Assembly (NCBI GenBank): GCA_041937175.2
Contig: CP166615.1
Span: forward strand, 3,167,547-3,199,546
DNA: 32,000 nt
Direction of reading: 5' to 3'
DNA from: Limnothrix sp. BL-A-16
Lineage (GTDB): Bacteria > Cyanobacteriota > Cyanobacteriia > CACIAM-69d
The translations under genes were made by a program, and so were the position numbers. Shown here one piece after another: positions 2,314 through 22,142 of this stretch. Numbering within the stretch: position 1 is the stretch's first letter; every line of letters begins with the position of its first letter. The notes under the pieces are model-generated. The model was not told where the DNA came from. It did not search any database and saw only the letters and a list, made by a program, of their open reading frames with translations.

Positions 2314-3531
2314 ATGCAATTTGCCGATCGACTGAAACCGCTGCAATTCAACGTGTTTGCGGCCATGGATCGGGCGAAGGCAGCAGCGGCTGAAACCCAC
2401 GAGATTGTGGATTTATCGCTGGGATCGGTGGACTTGCCCACTTCGCCCCACGTGCTGGCGGCGATCGGGGAAGCGCTTCAGGATCCCAGCACCCACGGCT
2501 ACCAACTCTTTCGCAATACGGCGGCCTTTCGACAGGCGGTGGCCGATCGCTACGAGCGGCAATTTGGCCTGGCGATCGACCCGGAAACGGAAGTGCTAGC
2601 CCTGATTGGCTCCCAGGAAGGAACCGCTCACTTACCCCTGGCGGTTTTAAACCCGGGGGATGTGGCCCTGCTGGGCGATCCGGGCTATCCCTCCCACTAC
2701 GGTGGCGTGCATTTGGCGGGCGGTGAGGTTTATCCCATGCCGCTGTTGGCGCAACATGGCTATTTGCCGCAGTTTGACCAAATTCCGGCGGCCGTGGTCG
2801 ATCGGGCGCGGCTAATGGTGCTGAACTATCCCCACAACCCGACCACAGCGGTGGCTAACCTGGACTTTTTCCGGCGGGCGGTGGCGTTTTGTCAGCAGCA
2901 CGGCATCGTGTTGATTCATGATTTTGCCTACGACGGGATGGCCTTTGGCGATCGCCCGCCGTCGGTGTTGCAAGCGGATCCAGACAAGACGGTTTCGATC
3001 GAGTTTTTCACCCTGTCTAAGGCCTTTAATATGGGCGGCTTTCGGGCGGGCTATGCGATCGGGAACCGCGACTTGATTGCAGCCCTGCGCAGTGTCAAGG
3101 CCGCCGTGGACTTTAACCAATACCAAGGCATTTTCAGGGGGGCGATCGCAGCGCTTCAGGGGCCCCAAGCCGATGTGCAGGAACGGTTAGAAATTTTTCG
3201 CGATCGCCGGGATGCGTTTGTGGCCGCCATGAATCGGATTGGTTGGCCCCTGGAAACGCCCCAAGCAACCATGTTCGCCTGGGCTAAGTTGCCGCCGCCT
3301 TGGGAAAACCAGTCGATCGAATTCTGTAAGCAACTGGTGGCCGCCACGGGCATCGCCGTGGCCCCGGGGGTGGGCTTTGGCCCTTCCGGTGAAGGCTATG
3401 TGCGTTTTGCCCTGGTGCAAACCCCGGAACAGTTGGCGCATTCGGTCGATCGCATTGCCACCTTTTTACAAACCGGCTTGCCAGCCGACCACAAAGGTCA
3501 GGGCCTGTTGTCACTTCCTGGAATCCAGTAA
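2314..3531 (+). CDS. PLP-dependent aminotransferase, class I/II (AspC-like)
   Basis: ATG at 2314 (MQFADRLKPLQFNVFAAMD). Motifs: NYPHNPT, FAYD, and the PLP-lysine motif SKAFNMGGFRAGY. The upstream 21 codons of the track ORF overlap the trx gene end and are rejected. Confidence 0.85.
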   Translation: MQFADRLKPLQFNVFAAMDRAKAAAAETHEIVDLSLGSVDLPTSPHVLAAIGEALQDPSTHGYQLFRNTAAFRQAVADRYERQFGLAIDPETEVLALIGSQEGTAHLPLAVLNPGDVALLGDPGYPSHYGGVHLAGGEVYPMPLLAQHGYLPQFDQIPAAVVDRARLMVLNYPHNPTTAVANLDFFRRAVAFCQQHGIVLIHDFAYDGMAFGDRPPSVLQADPDKTVSIEFFTLSKAFNMGGFRAGYAIGNRDLIAALRSVKAAVDFNQYQGIFRGAIAALQGPQADVQERLEIFRDRRDAFVAAMNRIGWPLETPQATMFAWAKLPPPWENQSIEFCKQLVAATGIAVAPGVGFGPSGEGYVRFALVQTPEQLAHSVDRIATFLQTGLPADHKGQGLLSLPGIQ

Positions 3532-3554
3532 AAACGGCTGATCTTCCATACCCT

Positions 3555-3642
3555 AACCACCCTAGACAAGGAGCTTAAGCCCCTTGCCCCTACGATCCAA
3601 CCACCCTAGACAAGGGGCTTAAGCCCCTTGCCCTTACGATCC
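3555..3642. repeat. Two tandem 44-bp repeats (42/44 identical), each with a palindromic core
   Basis: Copies at 3555-3598 and 3599-3642 read AACCACCCTAGACAAGG(A/G)GCTTAAGCCCCTTGCCC(C/T)TACGATCC. Copy 2 contains the perfect 20-bp palindrome CAAGGGGCTTAAGCCCCTTG at 3611-3630. Confidence 0.8.
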
Positions 3643-3772
3643 GCCAACGGTGGAATAAGGGTTTCAGGCGATATGACGACAAGCCCTAATCACTGCAAAG
3701 GTTAGTCACCACAAAGGTTAATCAACGGCTGAATGATTGCTGAAAGGCAGATTAACCTTTTGCCCTCAGTCC

Positions 3773-4945
3773 CTACCAAGGATTGCTGAAAGTGCGCACC
3801 GGTCGCCCGCCGATGTTGGATTGGGATGGCTGCGTCACCGGTTCCGGAGCCACGGCCGGTTGGCTGGGCGGCGGGGCGATCGCGGGGCTGTTGGGAACCG
3901 TGTTGTAACCGGCGTTTAAGGGTACACCGGAACCCGTGGAGCCATAGCCTGGCATCGGAGCCGTTGGGATTTTGGGCAAAGTGCTGCCCGCCGTTGCCGG
4001 GCCGGAGCCATAGCTGGGATAGCCCGTGGGACTGCCAAAGCCGCCATAGTTCACATTGCCGGCCCCAGCATTGGGAACCGCCACATTCGGCAGTGTGGGA
4101 TTGGTTGTGCCGCTGCCGATGGTGGGAGTTGTGCCGCTGGAACCCGTGACGGGAACCGTGGGCGTTGTGGTGTTGGTGCTGCTGCTGGGGGTTGTGCCGC
4201 TGGAATCGCTGCTGCCATCACCATTGTTCAGGTAGAGGCGATCGAGCGCCGCTTGCAGGGGACTCACGGGCTGGCCGGTGGTTGTTCCATTGCCATTGAG
4301 CATGGTCGAGCTGCCTCCCACACCGTAGCTGCTGCCATTGGCATTGGCGGCCCGAGGGTCATTGCTCAAAAATTGATTCACCGCCCTTGGGGCCAAACCA
4401 CTGCCCTCGCCACCGCGCGATCGACTGCCCACGGGGCCCGCCGAACCACCACTGAGCAACTGCAAAATATCCGCTAGCTCAGAGTTGGCGTTGTTCGCCG
4501 TTTTTTCTTCATCCTGGCGATCGCGTTTATTGCGATTGTTCCGGCGCTGGTTTTGGGGCAGGGTTAGCTCCGTTGCCAACACATTAGACGAGTCAATATC
4601 AGCCGCCACCGAATCATCATCGGGCTGAGACTCCAGAATCGAGAGCCAATCTACCTTGTCCGGCTCAGGTTCGGCATTAGTCCAGCGATCGGGATTTTTC
4701 CAAAACACCCAAGCCCCCAAGGTTGCCATCGAAATCGCCATGGCCGGCAACCAGATGAAGGGTTCGCCCAACCAGCGCAGATTTCTGAGCACCAGCGTTA
4801 GGCTGAAGGTTTCGCGCAATTGCGACACCCAACCCTCATGGGTTCCTGGCTCATGGGTTCCTGAGTGCGCCTTGTGGCCGTGATGACCCGCCGGGTGATG
4901 ACTCGATGGGTGATGGCCCGATGAGTGATGGTGATGCTCGGACAT
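3773..4945 (-). CDS. Hypothetical single-pass membrane protein with a His-rich N-tail and a Gly/Ser/Thr/Pro-rich low-complexity C-terminal region
   Basis: The N-terminus MSEHHHHSSGHHPSSHHPAGHHGHKAHSGTHEPGTHEGW has about 15 His in 40 residues. One hydrophobic helix follows (FIWLPAMAISMATLGAWVFW), then about 300 aa of low complexity. An alternative GTG start lies at 4957. No family recognised. Confidence 0.6.
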   Translation of the reverse strand: MSEHHHHSSGHHPSSHHPAGHHGHKAHSGTHEPGTHEGWVSQLRETFSLTLVLRNLRWLGEPFIWLPAMAISMATLGAWVFWKNPDRWTNAEPEPDKVDWLSILESQPDDDSVAADIDSSNVLATELTLPQNQRRNNRNKRDRQDEEKTANNANSELADILQLLSGGSAGPVGSRSRGGEGSGLAPRAVNQFLSNDPRAANANGSSYGVGGSSTMLNGNGTTTGQPVSPLQAALDRLYLNNGDGSSDSSGTTPSSSTNTTTPTVPVTGSSGTTPTIGSGTTNPTLPNVAVPNAGAGNVNYGGFGSPTGYPSYGSGPATAGSTLPKIPTAPMPGYGSTGSGVPLNAGYNTVPNSPAIAPPPSQPAVAPEPVTQPSQSNIGGRPVRTFSNPW

Positions 4946-5291
4946 AGTTAGGGTCACCAGAGCAGGATCAGAGAGTGGTTGGAGAGCGGGTCGGGGCTGG
5001 GGAGGCTGAACGAGAGCCGCTGGACGGAGACAGGGTAGAAGCGAGCGAAACCCCTAGACGAGAACGAGCCTTGGAGCGATGGCTCATTTTTAGGTAACAA
5101 TTGCTGCTTCCATTCTATCGGGTCTGGCAACCCTGAAGCCAGGGCCTACCCCCAACGCCTGGGGCCCGCCCCCTGAAATTCGCCAGTACCCAAACGGAGA
5201 ACCGACACCAGCGATCGCCCCAAACGGCCCAACCTTGGTTTAGGGTGGCTTCTGGCTAATCAGTTGCCGGGATTCCCGAAAGGTTTGTTGG

Positions 5292-9770: not shown

Positions 9771-12700
9771 ATGGACGAGCAACGACTTCAGGCTTATTTG
9801 CAATTGATTCAGCAGTTGTTGGCTTGTCCGGCGGGGGAAGAGGAAAGCGTTTTGCAAGCCCAGGTGGAGTTGGTGGATGCGGGGCTGGTGGAGGTGATGG
9901 GACAGGTAGCTGACCTAATGGTGGAAAAAGGAGACAACAACGCCGGCCGATTGCGACAGTTTTCTGAGCAGGTGGCGCAGGCGTTGGGGCTGGAGTCAGC
10001 GACGGCGAGTGGTGCGGAGGATATGGATCAGTTTGTGGGGGAGGTGATGGAGCAGATTCTCCAAACCCAAGGCAATCCAGCGCAGGTTTATGGGTTTTGG
10101 CAGGTCGATTTAAATCGATTTAACGAAGCATTTTTGGCAACGCTGCCTATCACTTTTCGCCGCTTGATCGGGCAAAATGACCCCAAACTAATTGCGGCTA
10201 TCTTTGCTAGGTTTGGAAACTTGATTCAACAATTTCCAATCGGTTCGCATTGGTTGAATCTGGAATGTGCAATTACGGTCTACGAACAGGCGCTGATGAT
10301 CTACACCTGCGAAGCGCTTCTCGAAGATTGGGCCATGACCCAAAACAACCTGGCAACTGCTTACAGCAATCGAATCCGAGGGGAGAAGGCGGACAACCTA
10401 GAACTAGCGATCACCGCCTACAAACGGGCGCTGGAAGTCCTCACCCGCGATGCTTGTCCTGAAAATTGGGCAGGGACTCAAAACAATCTGGCCAATGCTT
10501 ACAGCAATCGAATTCGAGGGGAGCGGGCGGACAACCTAGAACTAGCAATCACCGCCTACAAACGGGCGCTGGAAGTCTACACCCGCGATACTTTTCCTGA
10601 AAATTGGGCCATGACTCAAAACAACCTGGGAGAAGCTTACCGCTCTCGAATCCGAGGGGAGAAGGCGGACAACCTAGAACTAGCGATCACCGCCTACAAA
10701 CGGGCACTGGAAGTCAGAACTCGCGATGCTTTTCCCAAAGATTGGGCAGGGACTCAAAACAATCTAGCCAATGGTTACGGTGCTCGAATCCGAGGGGAAC
10801 GGGCGGACAACTTAGAACTAGCGATCACCGCTTACAAACGAGCGCTGGAAGTCTACACCCGCGATACTTTTCCTGAAAATTGGGCCATGACCCAAAACAA
10901 CTTAGCAACTGCCTACAGCAATCGAATCTGCGGGGAACGGGCGGATAACCTAGAACTAGCGATCACCGCTTACAAACGAGCGCTGGAAGTCCGTACCCGC
11001 GAGGCGTTTCCTGAAGCTTGGGCAGCGACCCAAAACAACCTGGCAAATGCTTACAGCGATCGCATCAGAGGAGAACGGGCGCACAACCTAGAACAAGCGA
11101 TCACCGCTTACGAACGGGCGCTGGAAGTCTACACCCGCAATGCTTTTCCCGAAAATTGGGCCATGACCCAAAACAACCTGGGAGAAGCTTATCGCGATCG
11201 CATCCGAGGGGAGCGGGCAGACAACCTGGAGCGAGCAATCATCGCTTGCGAACGGGCGCTGGAAGTCTATGCCCGCGATACTTTTCCACAAAATTGGGCC
11301 ATGACCCAAAACAACTTAGCAACTGCCTACAGCAATCGAATCTGCGGGGAGCGGGCGGACAACCTAGAACTAGCGATCACTGCCTACAAACGGGCGCTGG
11401 AAATCTACACCCGCAATGCTTTTCCACAAGATTGGGCAGGGACTCAAAATAACCTGGCAAATGCTTACGTCGCTCGTATCCAAGGGGAACGGGCAGATAA
11501 CCTGGAGCAGTCGATCGCCGCCTACAAACGGGCGCTGGAAGTCTACACCCATGATGCTTTTCCTGAACAATGGGCAATGACCCAAAACAACCTGGCAAAT
11601 ACTTACAGCCAGAGAATTCGAGGGGAACGGGCGGACAACCCGGAACGGGCGATCACTGCTTACGAACAGGCGCTGGAAGTCCGCACCCGCGAGGCGTTTC
11701 CCGAAGATTGGGCAGCGACCCAAAACAACCTAGCAATTGCTTACCGCGATCGCATCCGAGGGGAACGGGCGGATAACCTCGAACAAGCGATCGCTGCCTA
11801 CGAACGGGCGCTGGAAGTCTTCACCCGCGAGGCCTTTCCGAATGACTGTCGCCGTACTTCTCGATCGCTCGGCGATCTTCAAAGCGAGTTGCAAAACTGG
11901 GATGCTGCGACCCAAGCCTATGGGCAAGCCCTCGCCGCTGCGGAAGATCTCTACCAAGCCTGCACCCTGCTCGACAGCCAAGCCGGTGAGCTAAAAGCAA
12001 CCGCCAACCTGCCCCGCCGCGCCGCCTATGCCTACGCCAAAGCCAGTCAACTCGCCACAGCCCTCGAAACGATCGAACGGGGCCGCGCCCGGGGCCTCAG
12101 CGAACGACTCCAACGCGATCGCGCTGACCTCGCACAACTCCAACAACAGCGCCCTGACCTGTTCGATCGCTACCGCGACATCACCAACCAACTGCAAAAC
12201 CTGGAAAGCCAACAACGCGACCAGCAAGTCCGCGATCGCCAAGCCATCACCCCCGAACAACACCGCAACGAAGCCCAAAGACTCCGCCAGGAATTGACCG
12301 AGGCGATCGCCCAAATTCGCCAAGTCCCCGGCTATGAAACCTTCCTGCAAGCACCCAGCCTCACCGAAATTCAACAAAACCTCAGCACCGAAGCACCCAC
12401 CGTCTACCTGATCCCCACCCCCAACGGCAGCCTCGCCCTAATCGCCACGCCCCAGGCGATCGCCCCCCTGTGGCTCGATGATTTCCCCGAAGCCACCCTC
12501 ACCGACTTGGTGCAAACCTGGCTCCAGGCTGACAGAGAGTCCAAAGTGGCTAACTATGAGTACAGTAAAGACCCGGAATCACTAGCCAAGATGCAGACCC
12601 GAAATGAAAAGCGGGAGCAGTGGCACAACGCGATCGACCAGGGAACCCGCCAACTGTGGGACAACCTAATGGCTCCCCTAATCGATCGGCTCAAACAACA

Positions 12701-13553
12701 CAACCACACCCAAGCGATCCTGATTCCCACCGGCTTGCTCGGATTGTTGCCCCTCCATGCCGCCTGGACAGAAGACCCCAGCCGCCCCACCGGCCGCCGC
12801 TACGCCCTCGATGAGCTGACCTTCACCTACGCCCCCAACGCCCAATCCCTCGTGGCCGCCCGGGCGGTGGCGGATGCCTTGCGGAGCAATATCGCCCAAC
12901 AATTCCCCGACAGCCACCTCGATTCGATCCTGGCGATCGACAATCCCCGCCAAGACCTGCCCAGCTCCGAACGGGAAGTCACGGCCGCCGTCAAAACCTT
13001 CCCCCACCCCACCGTCCTGCGCCACGAAAAAGCCACCACCGCAACCGTTGCCGACAACCTGGGTCAACAGGCGATCGTCCATTTCTCCTGCCACGGAACC
13101 GCCAACTTCAACGAACCCCTCAACAGCGGCCTGCTAATGAGCGATGACCTGTTGACCCTGCGCGAGCTATTTAACCTCAAGCTCACCGAAGGCAACAAAC
13201 GCGGCATCCGGCTCGCCGTCCTCTCCGCCTGCGAAACGGGACTCCCCGGCCTGGACTTAGCCGACGAGGCGATCGGCTTGCCCGTCGGACTGTTGCAAGC
13301 AGGCGTGGCCGGGGCGATCGCCTCGCTCTGGGCCGTGAGCGACCTCAGCACCATGATTCTGCTCACCAAGTTCTACGACCTCTGGCGCAACGATCGCCTC
13401 ACCCCACCCGCAGCCCTCCGCCAAGCCCAACAATGGCTCCGCAACGCGACCCTTTCCGAAATTCGCCAGCTCACCGGCATCAGTTTCCGAGGCGCTGAAC
13501 ACCCATTTGCCCACCCCTACTACTGGGCAGGCTTCAGCTACACCGGCATATAA
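9771..13553 (+). CDS. TPR-repeat / CHAT-domain (caspase-like peptidase) protein
   Basis: 1260 aa. It has the cyanobacterial-type N-terminus (RLQAYLQLIQQLLACPAGEEESVL), then 12 x 46-aa TPR-like repeats, then a coiled-coil linker. The C-terminal CHAT domain keeps the catalytic dyad contexts HFSCHG (His codon 13092-13094) and LSACETG (Cys codon 13230-13232). Confidence 0.9.
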   Translation: MDEQRLQAYLQLIQQLLACPAGEEESVLQAQVELVDAGLVEVMGQVADLMVEKGDNNAGRLRQFSEQVAQALGLESATASGAEDMDQFVGEVMEQILQTQGNPAQVYGFWQVDLNRFNEAFLATLPITFRRLIGQNDPKLIAAIFARFGNLIQQFPIGSHWLNLECAITVYEQALMIYTCEALLEDWAMTQNNLATAYSNRIRGEKADNLELAITAYKRALEVLTRDACPENWAGTQNNLANAYSNRIRGERADNLELAITAYKRALEVYTRDTFPENWAMTQNNLGEAYRSRIRGEKADNLELAITAYKRALEVRTRDAFPKDWAGTQNNLANGYGARIRGERADNLELAITAYKRALEVYTRDTFPENWAMTQNNLATAYSNRICGERADNLELAITAYKRALEVRTREAFPEAWAATQNNLANAYSDRIRGERAHNLEQAITAYERALEVYTRNAFPENWAMTQNNLGEAYRDRIRGERADNLERAIIACERALEVYARDTFPQNWAMTQNNLATAYSNRICGERADNLELAITAYKRALEIYTRNAFPQDWAGTQNNLANAYVARIQGERADNLEQSIAAYKRALEVYTHDAFPEQWAMTQNNLANTYSQRIRGERADNPERAITAYEQALEVRTREAFPEDWAATQNNLAIAYRDRIRGERADNLEQAIAAYERALEVFTREAFPNDCRRTSRSLGDLQSELQNWDAATQAYGQALAAAEDLYQACTLLDSQAGELKATANLPRRAAYAYAKASQLATALETIERGRARGLSERLQRDRADLAQLQQQRPDLFDRYRDITNQLQNLESQQRDQQVRDRQAITPEQHRNEAQRLRQELTEAIAQIRQVPGYETFLQAPSLTEIQQNLSTEAPTVYLIPTPNGSLALIATPQAIAPLWLDDFPEATLTDLVQTWLQADRESKVANYEYSKDPESLAKMQTRNEKREQWHNAIDQGTRQLWDNLMAPLIDRLKQHNHTQAILIPTGLLGLLPLHAAWTEDPSRPTGRRYALDELTFTYAPNAQSLVAARAVADALRSNIAQQFPDSHLDSILAIDNPRQDLPSSEREVTAAVKTFPHPTVLRHEKATTATVADNLGQQAIVHFSCHGTANFNEPLNSGLLMSDDLLTLRELFNLKLTEGNKRGIRLAVLSACETGLPGLDLADEAIGLPVGLLQAGVAGAIASLWAVSDLSTMILLTKFYDLWRNDRLTPPAALRQAQQWLRNATLSEIRQLTGISFRGAEHPFAHPYYWAGFSYTGI
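10251..11906 (+). repeat. 12 in-frame tandem 138-bp (46-aa) coding repeats inside the CHAT gene
   Basis: The unit is ADNLELAITAYKRALEV.TRD.FPENWA.TQNNLANAYSNRIRGER. Unit starts fall exactly every 138 bp (10251, 10389, 10527 ... 11769). Several units are near-identical at the DNA level. Confidence 0.9.
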
Positions 13554-18780: not shown

Positions 18781-18973
18781 AATTGCGCTCACTCCACACC
18801 AAGGGTTTGTGTTGCTTTCCACACCAAATCGATCTTGCATCCGCACGATCGACATAGTTCGCAACTCGCCTGAAGGATAGCACGGGCCGATCGAGGGGGT
18901 CGATCGCCCCGGATACCATGGCGGGGTCTGGGGGAGTGAGTAAACTTAAAGCAGATGTGAGGAGCGATCGCCC

Positions 18974-19471
18974 ATGTTTGACCAAAACGAGTTAGCCAAT
19001 CTTGAGAAAAATATCAAGCGCCTTAAGCAGCAGTTAGCGGGCAAACGCGACACCCTGGTCACGATCGCTTCAGACGAAAAAGTACGGATTCGGCAGCAAA
19101 TTGAAGATCTACGCTCCGAGATCAACGGCTTGGAGCGGGAATATTGGGAACTGCTGCATCAGCGATCGATCAGCTTTGAGCCGTCGGAGGATGAAGCTGA
19201 ACCGATCGTGGCGGAATGGGTTGAGAAAGCCAATCAGTTAGAGACGAATCCGCCCGCCAACGTGCCTGCTGAGATTTTGCAGCAGGTGCAGGCGGTGGCC
19301 AAACGGTTGGATCAGCCGGGTCAATCGGCTGCGATCAAGGTGAAGGGGATGATTTCGGCGTTGCCACCATTTTTCTCGGTGGGCATTGAGACCGAATTGG
19401 ATGTGGCGGGATTTGTAAAAGGCAATTTCCCCACTTTTTGGAACTGGGCGGCGGCACTCGCAAAAAAGTAG
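18974..19471 (+). CDS. Hypothetical coiled-coil protein; possible detached or frameshift-linked N-terminal module of the downstream STAND NTPase
   Basis: 165 aa. GAGGAG lies 9 nt upstream of the ATG. The N-terminal heptad region is LEKNIKRLKQQLAGKRDTLVTIASDEKVRIRQQIEDLRSEINGLEREYWELL. The C-terminal aromatic/hydrophobic segment is ISALPPFFSVGIETELDVAGFVKGNFPTFWNWAAAL. The ORF ends ...GCA AAA AAG TAG. Confidence 0.65.
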   Translation: MFDQNELANLEKNIKRLKQQLAGKRDTLVTIASDEKVRIRQQIEDLRSEINGLEREYWELLHQRSISFEPSEDEAEPIVAEWVEKANQLETNPPANVPAEILQQVQAVAKRLDQPGQSAAIKVKGMISALPPFFSVGIETELDVAGFVKGNFPTFWNWAAALAKK

Positions 19472-21573
19472 ATGGCCCGGTTCCAACGCCGGGCCAAGAA
19501 CCGCCGACAAATTTGCAGGATCGGGGGGTCGATCGCGATCGCTTCTTTGGACGCGATGACGTATTGCAGGATTTGCACGATCGGTTGGGGCGATCGGATC
19601 GGGTGGCGGTGACGAGTGTGGCGGGCATGGGCGGCGTGGGCAAAAGTGAGCTGGCGGTGCAGTATGCGCGGTGGCGGCTGCGGGAGGGGGACTATCGCGG
19701 CGGGGTGGTGTGGCTGGCGGGGGAACGGGCGGGGATTGAGCTATTGGGGTTTGCGAAGGCGCAGTTTTTCCCGGATGTGGATTTGGCGCAGTTAGGCGAT
19801 TTACGCGAACAGTTGACGTTTATTTGGTCGCGTTGGCCGGTGCCTGAGGTTCCGCCGGAGTCGGTGCTGTTGGTGTTTGATGATGTGACGGATTACCGAT
19901 CGCAGGTGGCGGATCTGTTGCCGAGTGACAAGCGGTTTCGGGCGATCGTCACGACGCGGGAGCAGATCCAGGGGATCGATCGGTTGGATTTGGCGGTGCT
20001 GGCTCCGGCGGCTGCGTTGGACTTGTTGCGATCAATCGTTGGGGAAGCGCGGATCGCGGCGGAACCGGAGACGGCGAGCGAGATCTGTGAATGGCTGGGC
20101 TTTTTGCCGTTGGGTTTGGAGTTGGTGGGCTATTATCTCCAGCGCAAGCCGAATCTGTCGCTGGCAAAGCTGCTGGAACGGTTGAATGAGAAGCGTTTGG
20201 CGGCGAGGGCGTTAATCGATGTGCCGGTGACGCTGACGGCACAGCGGGGGGTCGCGGCGGCGTTTGAGTTGAGTTGGGAGGCGATCGGCGCGCAGGAGTG
20301 GGGCGAGTCGGCGCAGGCGTTGGCGATGCGGCTGAGTCTGTTTGCGGCGGCTCCGATTCCGTGGGGCTTGATGCAGGACTGTTGGGCGGCGGCGGATGAG
20401 GAGGAGTTGGAGGATTGGCGCGATGGGTTAGTGGCGTTGCATCTGATTGAGGATGTCACCGGGGAGCGCTATCGGTTGCATCCGCTGATTCGGGAGTTTT
20501 TTGCAGCGAAGTTGGCGGCGCGGGCGGAGGCGACAGCCTGGCGGACGGCGTTTGCGGTGACGTTGACGAAGATTGCGAGAACAATTCCGCAGACTGTGAC
20601 GCTGGAACAGCAAGCCCAGGTGCGCGAGGCAATGCCCCATCTGGAAGCCGCGACGGATTATTGCGACCTACTGAGCGATGATGATTGCGGCTGGCCGTTC
20701 ACTGGTTTAGCCCGGTTTTACGAAGCCCAAGGCCTGTTCGAGGATGCCGAGCGTTGCTCTCAGCATTGCCTCGATATGCGCGAAACCCGCTTCGGAGCCG
20801 ACCACCCTGATACCGCCACCAGCCTCAACAATTTGGCGGCATTGTATGAATCGCAAGGGAAATACGATCGCGCCGAACCGCTCTACCAACGCGCCTTAGA
20901 CATCAGAGAACAGCAACTGGGAGCCGACCCCCCCGCTACCGCCACCAGCCTCAACAATTTGGCGGGATTGTACCGATCACAAGGGAAATACGATCACGCC
21001 GAACCGCTCTTGCAACGCGCCTTAGCGATCAGGGAACGGCAACTGGGAGCCGACCACCCCCATACCGCCAGCAGCCTCAACAATTTGGCGCTTTTGTATA
21101 AATCGCAAGGGAAATACGATCGCGCCGAACCGCTCTACCAACGCGCCTTAGCGATCTATGAACGGCAACTGGGAGCCGACCACCCCAATACCGCCAGCAG
21201 CCTCAACAATTTGGCGCTTTTGTATAAATCGCAAGGGAAATACGATCGCGCCGAACCGCTCTACCAAAGCGCCTTAGACATCAGAGAACGGCAACTGGGA
21301 GCCGACCACCCCGATACCGCCGCCAGCCTCAACAATTTGGCGGTGCTGTATTTCTATCAAAATCGCTGGGGCGAGGCGGAGCGGTTGCTGGTGCGGGCGC
21401 TGCTGATTTGGGCGCAGGTGTTGGGCGAAGCGCATCCCGACACGCAAAGCTCGATTCAAAGCTTGTTCAGCCTAATCGGTGCAGCCCTGAACCAGGGACG
21501 CGCCGCCGAACTCTCCGACCACCCCGTCACCCAATCCATCCTGCAACAACTCACCACCCCACCCAACCCGTAG
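19438..21573 (+). CDS. NB-ARC (STAND P-loop NTPase) protein with C-terminal kinesin-light-chain-type TPR repeats
   Basis: The Walker A motif GMGGVGKS lies at 19624-19647, preceded by FFGRDDVLQDLHDRL. The Walker B context is LLVFDDV, followed by a helical/winged-helix region and then 42-aa TPR units. The 5' end is uncertain. The frame is open from 19390, with no ATG before the P-loop and only TTG candidates (19438, 19513) without an SD. See the frameshift finding. Confidence 0.85.
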   Translation: MELGGGTRKKVDGPVPTPGQEPPTNLQDRGVDRDRFFGRDDVLQDLHDRLGRSDRVAVTSVAGMGGVGKSELAVQYARWRLREGDYRGGVVWLAGERAGIELLGFAKAQFFPDVDLAQLGDLREQLTFIWSRWPVPEVPPESVLLVFDDVTDYRSQVADLLPSDKRFRAIVTTREQIQGIDRLDLAVLAPAAALDLLRSIVGEARIAAEPETASEICEWLGFLPLGLELVGYYLQRKPNLSLAKLLERLNEKRLAARALIDVPVTLTAQRGVAAAFELSWEAIGAQEWGESAQALAMRLSLFAAAPIPWGLMQDCWAAADEEELEDWRDGLVALHLIEDVTGERYRLHPLIREFFAAKLAARAEATAWRTAFAVTLTKIARTIPQTVTLEQQAQVREAMPHLEAATDYCDLLSDDDCGWPFTGLARFYEAQGLFEDAERCSQHCLDMRETRFGADHPDTATSLNNLAALYESQGKYDRAEPLYQRALDIREQQLGADPPATATSLNNLAGLYRSQGKYDHAEPLLQRALAIRERQLGADHPHTASSLNNLALLYKSQGKYDRAEPLYQRALAIYERQLGADHPNTASSLNNLALLYKSQGKYDRAEPLYQSALDIRERQLGADHPDTAASLNNLAVLYFYQNRWGEAERLLVRALLIWAQVLGEAHPDTQSSIQSLFSLIGAALNQGRAAELSDHPVTQSILQQLTTPPNP
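19462..19495 (+). promoter_or_regulatory. Candidate -1 programmed ribosomal frameshift cassette (slippery heptamer + stem-loop)
   Basis: A_AAA_AAG (19462-19468) is in the zero frame of the upstream ORF, immediately before its TAG (19469-19471). After a 5-nt spacer comes the hairpin GGCCCGG (19474-19480), loop TTCCAACG, CCGGGCC (19489-19495). The -1 frame is the NB-ARC reading frame. Confidence 0.4.
20794..21423 (+). repeat. 5 in-frame tandem 126-bp (42-aa) TPR coding repeats, plus degenerate flanking units
   Basis: The unit is GADHP.TA.SLNNLA.LY.SQGKYDRAEPLYQRAL.I.E.QL. Unit starts fall at 20794, 20920, 21046, 21172 and 21298. Units 3 and 4 are almost identical at the DNA level. Confidence 0.9.
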
Positions 21574-21809: not shown

Positions 21810-22142
21810 ATGGACAAAATGAACTACCCCCAACTGGTGCAACAGGCCCTCGACTATCACCACCAACACAGCCAAACCAGCAGCGACCTAGAAACCCACG
21901 CCATCTATGACCAACAACGCGATCGCTACCAACTGTTGCGATTTGGCTGGCAGGGGAGCGATCGCACCTTTGCCTGTGTGGCCTACGTGACGATCGAAAA
22001 CGGCAAAATCTGGATTCACCGCGACTTCACCGAACCCGGCATCGCCCATCAACTGCTCGAACAAGGCATCCCCAAAACCGATATCGTCCTGGCTTTTCAC
22101 GCCCCCAACCTGCGCCCCTACACCGAATTCGCGATCGGTTAA
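21810..22142 (+). CDS. xisI: XisI-family protein (orphan, no adjacent xisH)
   Basis: 110 aa. DQQRDRYQLLRFGWQGSDRTFACVAYVTIENGKIWIHRDFTEPGIAHQLLEQGIPKTDIVLAF aligns with the XisI at 8095-8430. Confidence 0.8.
   Translation: MDKMNYPQLVQQALDYHHQHSQTSSDLETHAIYDQQRDRYQLLRFGWQGSDRTFACVAYVTIENGKIWIHRDFTEPGIAHQLLEQGIPKTDIVLAFHAPNLRPYTEFAIG

Follow-up and report, generated by a model that had tools for sequence, protein, structure and literature searches.

A candidate -1 frameshifting cassette between a small helical domain and STAND NTPases in cyanobacteria

How does an NLR-like STAND NTPase obtain its N-terminal module, when its open reading frame (ORF) contains neither such a module nor a recognizable start? 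This question is raised by a locus in a stretch of 32,000 nucleotides from the cyanobacterium Limnothrix sp. BL-A-16 (GenBank assembly GCA_041937175.2, contig CP166615.1, positions 3,167,547 to 3,199,546, forward strand), which is called the window in the following; all positions without a locus name refer to it. The locus consists of a small ORF for a protein of 165 amino acids (aa) and an overlapping ORF for an NB-ARC/TPR protein, which ends at 21573; both were found where an earlier reading of the DNA sequence (the original prediction) had placed them. That reading had treated the ORFs as separate genes whose products must meet, with the upstream protein acting as the missing N-terminal module of the STAND protein. 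The comparisons presented here suggest, with a probability of roughly 75%, that the two ORFs are one recoded gene, which would yield by programmed -1 frameshifting both the free 165-aa domain and an 866-aa fusion of domain, NB-ARC NTPase and TPR repeats. The frameshift cassette at the junction had been overlooked in the original prediction.

The NB-ARC/TPR ORF is in the -1 frame relative to the small ORF, is open on the plus strand from 19438 to 21573 and shares 34 nt with the latter. Its assignment to the NB-ARC clade of STAND NTPases is based on a Pfam NB-ARC match of 44.0 bits (cut-off 23.5; E = 2.1e-11) and on the motifs GMGGVGKS (Walker A) and LLVFDDV (Walker B) in the translation. No N-terminal effector domain of its own was detected by Pfam in this ORF, in agreement with the original prediction, which had, however, let the protein begin about 30 residues before the P-loop; no such start codon is present, and the frame is open for 62 codons before the P-loop. 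An ATG upstream of the P-loop methionine was not found in the STAND frame of the window. TTG 19438 and TTG 19513 are the sole candidate starts, neither of which is conserved, and the frame has no start signal comparable to the GAGGAG sequence of the small ORF (Table 1). In the related lineages described below, no start codon of the -1 ORF is conserved in position. The -1 frames of four of them (L019, L022, L024, L055) contain no ATG, GTG or TTG 5' of a conserved FxGR motif, and in many lineages the frame is closed by a stop 3 codons 5' of the heptamer at the junction. Conserved peptides of the linker (P-x-N-L-P / FxGR in the NB-ARC type, KREASQEKLLQAV in the NACHT type) are situated 5' of any candidate start. 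The tripartite NLR-like plan is possessed by neither ORF alone; at this locus only the predicted frameshift product would have it, whereas the relatives P0155, P0156 and L052 have it in frame.

The small ORF terminates with ...CTC GCA AAA AAG TAG, i.e., with a heptamer A_AAA_AAG in the frame appropriate for -1 slippage and directly adjacent to the stop. A GC-rich hairpin of 9 bp begins 4-5 nt 3' of the heptamer; the 42-nt segment containing it has a folding energy of -18.6 kcal/mol. Following a -1 slip, the codons GTA GAT GGC CCG... would be read in the NB-ARC frame, giving the linker V-D-G-P...F-F-G-R (full sequence in Table 1) and the predicted junction peptide ...AAALAKKVDGPVPTPGQ...; the trans-frame product would comprise 165 + 701 = 866 aa. 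A_AAA_AAG is the shift site of Escherichia coli dnaX and of many IS3-family elements (PMC5009743, PMC3711429), and the three heptamers with the highest -1 efficiency measured in E. coli are C_CCA_AAG, G_GGA_AAG and A_AAA_AAG (PMC4066793). The sequence AAAAAAG occurs 6 times in the window against 7.7 expected matches; the heptamer is therefore unsurprising in one sequence, and its significance comes solely from comparative conservation.

For this comparison, one scan of a genome collection and one scan of metagenomes added 61 loci, the domain was located by a profile hidden Markov model, and the loci were clustered at 90% identity, which resulted in 31 lineages with an intact C-terminus of the domain. 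Acaryochloris, Microcystis, Leptolyngbyaceae, Coleofasciculaceae, Symploca, Vacuolonema and metagenomes were represented. An in-frame A_AAA_AAR is present at the domain C-terminus in 29 of the 31 clusters; in 27 it is A_AAA_AAG followed by a stop after 0-1 codon, and the stop is 0 or 1 codon away from the heptamer in 28 clusters. One cluster, L032, has A_AAA_AAA, and one (L052/L054) has A7. The codon preceding the two lysines is GCA, GTA, CTA or TTA and thus differs by lineage in the amino acid (Ala, Val or Leu), with an A in the third position throughout. Given the amino acids, NNA-AAA-AAG would be expected from local codon usage with a frequency of 0.054; the binomial P is about 1e-30, a value which overstates independence, because the lineage clusters are phylogenetically related. 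Where two sequences have the same amino acid, they also use the identical codon with a frequency of 0.98-1.0 at the last three codon positions and of 0.35-0.63 per ten-column bin elsewhere, which indicates that synonymous sites along the gene are saturated.

The -1 frame runs open from the heptamer into the STAND NTPase in every lineage that is neither truncated nor visibly disrupted. Its length 3' of the heptamer is 701 codons in the window and 370 to >1000 codons in 24 heptamer-bearing clusters. Most lineages have a stable hairpin at a distance of about 4-7 nt from the 3' end of the heptamer, and its stem sequences are unrelated between lineages. In 19 of 28 lineages the hairpin segment belongs to the most stable 5% of windows of equal length from its own locus, and in 11 of 28 it is more stable than synonymous-codon shuffles (Fisher p = 2e-9).

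The loci without a heptamer are L058, which ends with GCG AAA AAG TGA, and the first domain copy of L055; these are exactly the ones without a downstream -1 ORF. In L052 and L054, which represent one lineage in two assemblies, the run is A7, and domain and NACHT NTPase are in one frame. Two tandem copies of the domain gene are present in L055 (about 600-865 and 1260-1828), of which the second retains A_AAA_AAG and the NB-ARC frame; the first, having lost the heptamer, runs in frame into a sequence resembling a Phd/YefM-type antitoxin. A toxin-antitoxin element at the junction between domain and NB-ARC was also observed in Microcystis, L055 being the second instance: in L003-L005 (8501-9300) a RelB/ParE pair is inserted within the linker, between slippery site and NB-ARC ORF, where it interrupts the -1 frame after 32 codons, and the NB-ARC ORF of L003 is also split. 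The cassette is uninterrupted in the Microcystis loci L027 and L059. In L032/L071 (about 3500-4462) the domain occurs twice in tandem, as partial or complete copies, within a domain ORF of 315 aa that ends with A_AAA_AAA GCG TAG.

Further loci were obtained as DNA from a sister branch with about 35-45% identity (Microcoleus, Tychonema, Stenomitos, Phormidesmis, Oscillatoria). Four of the five end with NNA AAA AAG TAR and a hairpin, and their -1 frames encode NB-ARC-TPR, transmembrane-TPR (TM-TPR; two loci) and CHASE2 proteins. In the locus L078 from Oscillatoria sp. FACHB-1406 (4950-5030) the small ORF ends with GTG GGA AAG TAG, which is G_GGA_AAG, a slippery heptamer no less classical than A_AAA_AAG, with a hairpin 5 nt 3'; the -1 ORF extends about 230 codons past the heptamer and has no Pfam match on record. 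This exchange of one heptamer for another is hard to explain by anything but selection for tRNA re-pairing. Comparison across the lineages shows a conserved putative -1 recoding cassette, by which the domain ORF would be joined to variable sensor modules.

The cassette also precedes -1 ORFs which are not STAND proteins. These are a 163-aa protein without Pfam match in L045 (874-1362), a TPR-like protein of 585 aa without P-loop in L048 (981-2735), and the CHASE2 protein in L080 (4990-6449), where a CHAT gene is located about 1 kb further 3' on the opposite strand.

Four features of a -1 frameshift cassette were thus encountered at this junction: the in-frame heptamer, the start-poor overlapping -1 ORF, the 3' structure and the suppressed synonymous variation. 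The arrangement could alternatively be an ordinary operon of two genes, in which translation of the STAND gene would begin separately near the stop of the small gene, on a TTG, GTG or near-cognate codon, through coupling or re-initiation, and the proteins would interact only after synthesis. Gene callers indeed annotate two genes, with starts that vary; besides the two TTG codons of the window some ATG, GTG or TTG codons exist in the linker of several other lineages, and strong Shine-Dalgarno sequences are often missing in cyanobacteria. Such an operon appears unlikely, however, in view of the lack of a positionally conserved start, the four lineages without any usual start codon before FxGR, and the conserved linker motifs (P-x-N-L, and the corresponding peptide of the NACHT type) 5' of the candidate starts; moreover, it leaves unexplained the frozen NNA-AAA-AAG sites, the swap to G_GGA_AAG, the hairpin and the fact that the heptamer was lost at exactly those loci in which a downstream -1 ORF is missing. 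The ATG at 19472 immediately after the stop was rejected as a start of the STAND protein: it belongs to the 0 frame, the ORF that begins with it is only short and not conserved, and L011/L039 lack it.

Insertion of one A into the A6 run by RNA polymerase would yield the same fused frame, comparable to the genomic A7 of L052/L054, and poly-A runs are known sites of such transcriptional slippage (PMC3711429). Efficient realignment was described for runs of >7 A or 8 T (PMC3711429), however, against 6 here; the terminal G of the heptamer and the frame are conserved, and it is frameshifting by the ribosome that is stimulated by a hairpin 3' of the shift site and by a stop next to it. Locus L078 also argues against slippage of the polymerase, because G_GGA_AAG holds no homopolymer run, and this explanation is considered very improbable. 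That an ancestral fusion was merely broken by deletion of one nucleotide from the homopolymer, or that the split is a sequencing artefact, might be thought of because such runs are prone to insertions and deletions and because in-frame versions exist. Pseudogenes and sequencing errors can practically be excluded, since the same out-of-frame arrangement recurs in >25 lineages from isolates, metagenome-assembled genomes (MAGs) and metagenomes of different projects, with both ORFs intact over 500-1000 codons; in addition, the small ORF of about 165 aa is conserved in hundreds of clusters.

Programmed -1 frameshifting is thus the preferred explanation, against which several points have to be held. 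The evidence for recoding is computational throughout, and to the relatedness of the lineages, mentioned above, it should be added that about a third of them, including the Microcystis type, L021, L024, L040 and L044, have a weak hairpin or none. The STAND frame of the window could in principle start independently at TTG 19438 or TTG 19513. The shiftiness of A_AAA_AAG was measured in E. coli, which has one lysine tRNA (PMC5009743), and the host may differ in this respect; no tRNA genes are located within the window. Whatever conservation might point to an upstream stimulator of the Shine-Dalgarno type could not be told apart from constraint on the encoded residues K-A-L-A-K-K. Finally, the function of the domain (adaptor, co-assembly, immunity) is deduced from domain-architecture logic only.

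Table 1. Position of the features at the junction and in the two ORFs of the Limnothrix locus.
Feature	Position	Strand	Remarks	Source
Shine-Dalgarno-like GAGGAG	18959-18964	+	9 nt 5' of the ATG of the small ORF	sequence inspection
Small ORF (ORF0), 165 aa	18974-19471	+	ATG start; stop TAG 19469-19471	ORF list
Putative -1 slippery heptamer A_AAA_AAG (X_XXY_YYZ)	19462-19468	+	0-frame gcA AAA AAG	
0-frame stop TAG	19469-19471	+	directly 3' of heptamer	
Putative 3' stimulatory hairpin	19473-19496	+	UGGCCCGGU / loop UCCAAC / GCCGGGCCA	RNA folding
Predicted -1 continuation	19468-21573	+	701 codons plus stop	translation
Linker	19468-19554	+	VDGPVPTPGQEPPTNLQDRGVDRDR; ends in conserved FFGR motif before the NTPase	
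NB-ARC (STAND) NTPase module	19540-20500	+	approximate boundaries	Pfam NB-ARC, AAA_16, nSTAND1
Walker A / P-loop	19624-19647	+	GMGGVGKS	
TPR_12/TPR_10 repeat region, presumed sensor	20704-21453	+	E about 1e-84	Pfam

Two further searches concerned the junction region. A scan with Rfam over 19300-19700 yielded no significant family (best E = 5.4). A consensus scan indicated a terminator-like site on the minus strand at the position of the hairpin, formed by the hairpin and the complement of the A-run. It was rejected as a terminator, because the T-run is about 5 nt away from the stem, no minus-strand gene ends there, and the G_GGA_AAG variant lacks a minus-strand T-run; the call is probably a by-product of the A-run of the cassette. 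Within the TPR region, Tandem Repeats Finder detected a unit of 126 nt (42 aa) in 4.4 tandem copies (20794-21351) with 89% nucleotide identity, which suggests recent expansion or homogenization of repeats in the presumed sensor.

What kind of domain would be shared between the two products? The original prediction had described a heptad coiled coil and an aromatic and hydrophobic tail. A model of the small protein by AlphaFold2, using the family alignment, showed instead a compact bundle of seven helices (pLDDT 89, pTM 0.81), in which the former tail corresponds to the last three helices (residues 119-164) and is packed into the bundle. The maximum Kyte-Doolittle hydropathy over 19 residues is 1.23, the usual cut-off for transmembrane segments being about 1.6; no stretch of transmembrane grade was found by this measure. 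The profile and structure searches, which had been proposed as a check, produced no significant match: the best E-value obtained by Foldseek with the model in PDB and BFVD was not lower than 0.28, PDB sequences searched with a profile of the domain returned coiled-coil noise only, and matches in Pfam, NCBIfam and PADLOC were of the coiled-coil type and below threshold. A match to EAD9 (Pfam PF19962) extends over residues 4-56 and reaches 20.3 bits, the gathering cut-off being 25. Such sub-threshold EAD9 matches were present at E <= 0.01 (best 9.2e-5) in 7 of 16 members of the family.

The free protein might also be a toxic, membrane-active effector that is released or activated by the STAND sensor, which would be compatible with frameshifting. 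A Pfam match to PspA/IM30 (E = 1e-3, in one member), the closed ESCRT-III protein CdvB as top Foldseek match (E = 0.34, TM 0.38) and the conserved C-terminal motifs LPPF and FPTF could be quoted in its favour. Both matches are sub-threshold and not significant, and the resemblance to ESCRT-III/PspA was dropped as too weak; with the predicted compact soluble bundle, the lack of a transmembrane segment and the occurrence of the domain on bona fide effectors (TIR/SEFIR) as well as on non-STAND sensors, as would be typical for an adaptor, a membrane effector seems quite improbable.

Close homologs of the small protein number 71, all of them stand-alone and all from cyanobacteria. In the contexts of six close homologs the NB-ARC/TPR gene is always next, on the same strand, with otherwise unrelated flanks, and wherever contexts were fetched an NB-ARC/TPR or NACHT gene was found directly 3' of the small gene. 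A HMMER search of 1.84 billion representative proteins produced 275 family members (representatives at 50% identity), most of about 165 aa. Among the members of 150-180 aa, two lysines are exactly at the C-terminus in 31 of 71 and within the last 8 residues in 51 of 71; elsewhere in these proteins KK occurs with a frequency of 0.3% per position. In distant relatives the domain is N-terminal and in frame, namely in P0155 (STAND NTPase and TPR_12), P0156 (nSTAND1), P0116 (TPR) and P0132 (GUN4), and it is in frame with NACHT in L052/L054. In a branch without the KK ending it is located at the C-terminus of TIR/SEFIR (P0205), NACHT (P0163) and TRADD-N-like (P0219) proteins. Its partners overall are both sensors (STAND, CHASE2, TM-TPR, GUN4) and effectors (TIR/SEFIR, TRADD-N).

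These data bear on the proposal that the upstream protein is the missing N-terminal module. The original prediction had asked for homologs fused or adjacent to STAND NTPases; both were found, namely the conserved pairing and the in-frame fusions to STAND or NACHT in P0155, P0156 and L052/L054, and the proposal is supported by them. Of the roles considered for the module, that of an adaptor is in accordance with partners on the sensor and on the effector side, and a membrane-active or enzymatic effector is not supported, there being no transmembrane segment and no significant matches. According to Kaur, Burroughs, Iyer and Aravind (2020; PMC7159879), effector-associated adaptor domains (EADs) are defined by partners on both sides and were proposed to act by homotypic coupling. 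This general definition would apply, as far as sequence comparison can tell, to the present domain, which occurs on STAND, nSTAND1 and NACHT proteins and, in another branch, on TIR/SEFIR and TRADD-N proteins. Because its fusion partners are of both kinds, the domain is read as an adaptor; it would be EAD-like, and it is not classed as EAD9, whose gathering score is not reached and whose model has 62 aa as compared with about 165 aa here. With EAD1-10 and the bacterial Death-like adaptors it has in common the small non-enzymatic helical domain on a core NTPase with a separate adjacent copy, the preponderance in multicellular cyanobacteria and the fusions to TIR/SEFIR, TRADD-N, NACHT and STAND (PMC7159879). 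It differs from them in that its stand-alone copy carries no effector and in that the two copies would be one ORF decoded in two ways, rather than paralogous genes.

From these elements the following course of events can be envisaged. Ribosomes would begin at ATG 18974 and synthesize the 165-aa helical domain. The majority would terminate at the TAG and release the free domain; a minority, for which the hairpin and the stop next to the heptamer would cause a pause, would slip by -1 with the lysine tRNAs on AAA-AAG of the heptamer and would then read the Pro/Gly-rich linker, the NB-ARC NTPase and the TPR repeats, resulting in the 866-aa fusion. The efficiency of frameshifting would thereby set the ratio of free to sensor-tethered domain. 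The domain may act as an adaptor by homotypic interaction, in the manner of EADs or Death domains, and free and tethered copies could co-assemble by means of the common domain, as in dnaX tau/gamma, IS3 OrfA/OrfAB and phage G/GT. Binding of a ligand to the TPR array might lead to oligomerization of the STAND module and to clustering of the tethered domains, which could then nucleate free copies or recruit other carriers of the domain, e.g., the TIR/SEFIR fusions. A benefit could perhaps be that a sensor which is potentially dangerous would be made in low amounts and at a locked ratio. Only family resemblance suggests a role in immunity or cell death.

The design of a shared ORF could even be part of the signalling mechanism itself: a sensor oligomerized by its ligand would nucleate polymerization of the far more abundant free copies translated from its own mRNA, and the state of lysine tRNA or of the ribosome, e.g., translation stress induced by infection, could raise the dose of the sensor. 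This idea is put forward as a tentative one, which is rather doubtful at present. Polymer nucleation of this kind would resemble signalling by ASC/PYD or HET-S/NWD2, with the difference that the stoichiometry would be hard-wired here by the efficiency of frameshifting.

Known systems with similar properties may be compared. The tail assembly chaperones G/GT of phages follow the same scheme of a short and a long frameshift product. In OrfA/OrfAB of the IS3 family (IS911, IS3) the 5' ORF likewise ends just past a heptamer of the A_AAA_AAG type and is followed by a start-less -1 ORF and a 3' structure, and a short product and a long fusion share the N-terminal domain (PMC5009743). In contrast to both systems, what follows in the -1 frame of the present locus is neither a DDE transposase nor a tape-measure-binding domain but a STAND NTPase with TPR repeats, and the locus is neither a mobile element nor a phage gene, having ordinary chromosomal flanks which vary from locus to locus. 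Pfam detected NB-ARC and TPR, and no DDE transposase, in the -1 ORF; terminal inverted repeats of an IS3 insertion sequence were not searched for. The heptamer A_AAA_AAG and a 3' hairpin are shared with E. coli dnaX (PMC3711429, PMC5009743), as would be, according to the proposal made here, the fixed ratio of two isoforms which co-assemble by a common N-terminal part. Unlike in dnaX, where the frameshift product is the shorter one, the long form would be the frameshift product here, and no counterpart of the Shine-Dalgarno stimulator that lies upstream in dnaX could be demonstrated at this locus.

In fungal NWD2/HET-S and in bacterial amyloid signalling pairs, the N-terminal motif of the NLR protein matches a motif in the effector encoded by the adjacent gene. 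The present locus is similar in that an NLR-type sensor and its small neighbour would have one N-terminal signalling element in common, so that templated or nucleated assembly is suggested; different are the absence of an amyloid motif, the sharing of a whole folded helical domain via recoding instead of a duplicated motif, and the lack of an effector domain such as HeLo or Bell in the free copy. With the Avs/bNACHT defence proteins the predicted fusion has in common the tripartite plan of N-terminal module, STAND NTPase and repeat sensor. No known nuclease, protease, SIR2 or TIR domain corresponds to its N-terminal module, and PADLOC-DB 2.0 contained no Avs/NLR model matching the locus; a generic TPR model was the only match (3.3e-15), apart from coiled-coil noise for the small protein.

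A CHAT-TPR gene is situated 5.4 kb 5' of the module, separated by five ORFs (DUF29, two hypotheticals, a DUF3108-like ORF and the phosphoglucosamine mutase gene glmM), not only by glmM and one hypothetical gene as assumed in the original prediction, and the flanks within about 5 kb contain mostly housekeeping genes (glmM, a GH57 branching enzyme, a histidine kinase, a GGDEF/EAL protein). A functional link to the CHAT-TPR gene was dismissed: comparison of the family profile with the CHAT N-terminus by hhalign gave a probability of 0.2%, and CHAT is not a conserved neighbour. Flanking genes differ at every locus, and a CHAT gene is nearby in L080 only. The clustering of caspase-like and NLR-like components, which had been noted in the original prediction, is not a conserved one, the CHAT neighbourhood being variable and the CHAT N-terminus unrelated to the domain.

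The CHAT-TPR gene encodes a TPR-CHAT protein of 1260 aa (9771-13553). NCBIfam relates it weakly to Csx29, a CRISPR-associated TPR-CHAT protein of type III-E, by a match (E = 1.1e-11) that falls far short of the cut-off. The G+C content in its region is 0.47-0.52 at 7-11 kb and 14-16 kb, as compared with about 0.58-0.62 elsewhere, which suggests an acquired island. Just 3' of the module a gene of the XisI family is located (21810-22142; Pfam E = 1.7e-37), and one is also present in the related MAG locus L006 (11293-11616), where it is accompanied by DUF2283. Palindromes GCGATCGC of the HIP1 type were noted at 18964-18971 and 19533-19545, elsewhere at the locus and inside several hairpins of related loci; they fit the cyanobacterial origin of the window.

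Programmed -1 frameshifting, STAND proteins and adaptor domains are each known; their combination, and its spread through a large cyanobacterial family, appears to be undescribed. The arrangement was not found in the full-text literature of one collection on frameshifting together with STAND, NB-ARC, NACHT, cyanobacteria or defence systems, and neither the surveys of recoding nor a survey of cyanobacterial RNA structures describe an adaptor-STAND frameshift.

Bacterial NLR-like STAND proteins are central to prokaryotic immunity and to the origins of innate immunity in eukaryotes, and they have been treated as single polypeptides or as products of simple operons. Known chromosomal genes with -1 frameshifting include dnaX, copA and csoS2. 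Family-wide recoding, if true, would add a new cellular class to this short list. It would account for the many cyanobacterial STAND genes which seemingly lack an N-terminal domain and a start codon, and it would mean that annotation pipelines mis-call such genes by splitting them in two and inventing starts. The large and uncharacterized family of helical domains, with its 275 representatives at 50% identity, links STAND, NACHT, TIR/SEFIR, TRADD-N, CHASE2 and GUN4 proteins, and the recoded gene would serve as a model, open to direct testing, of the way in which adaptor and sensor may be kept at a fixed ratio.

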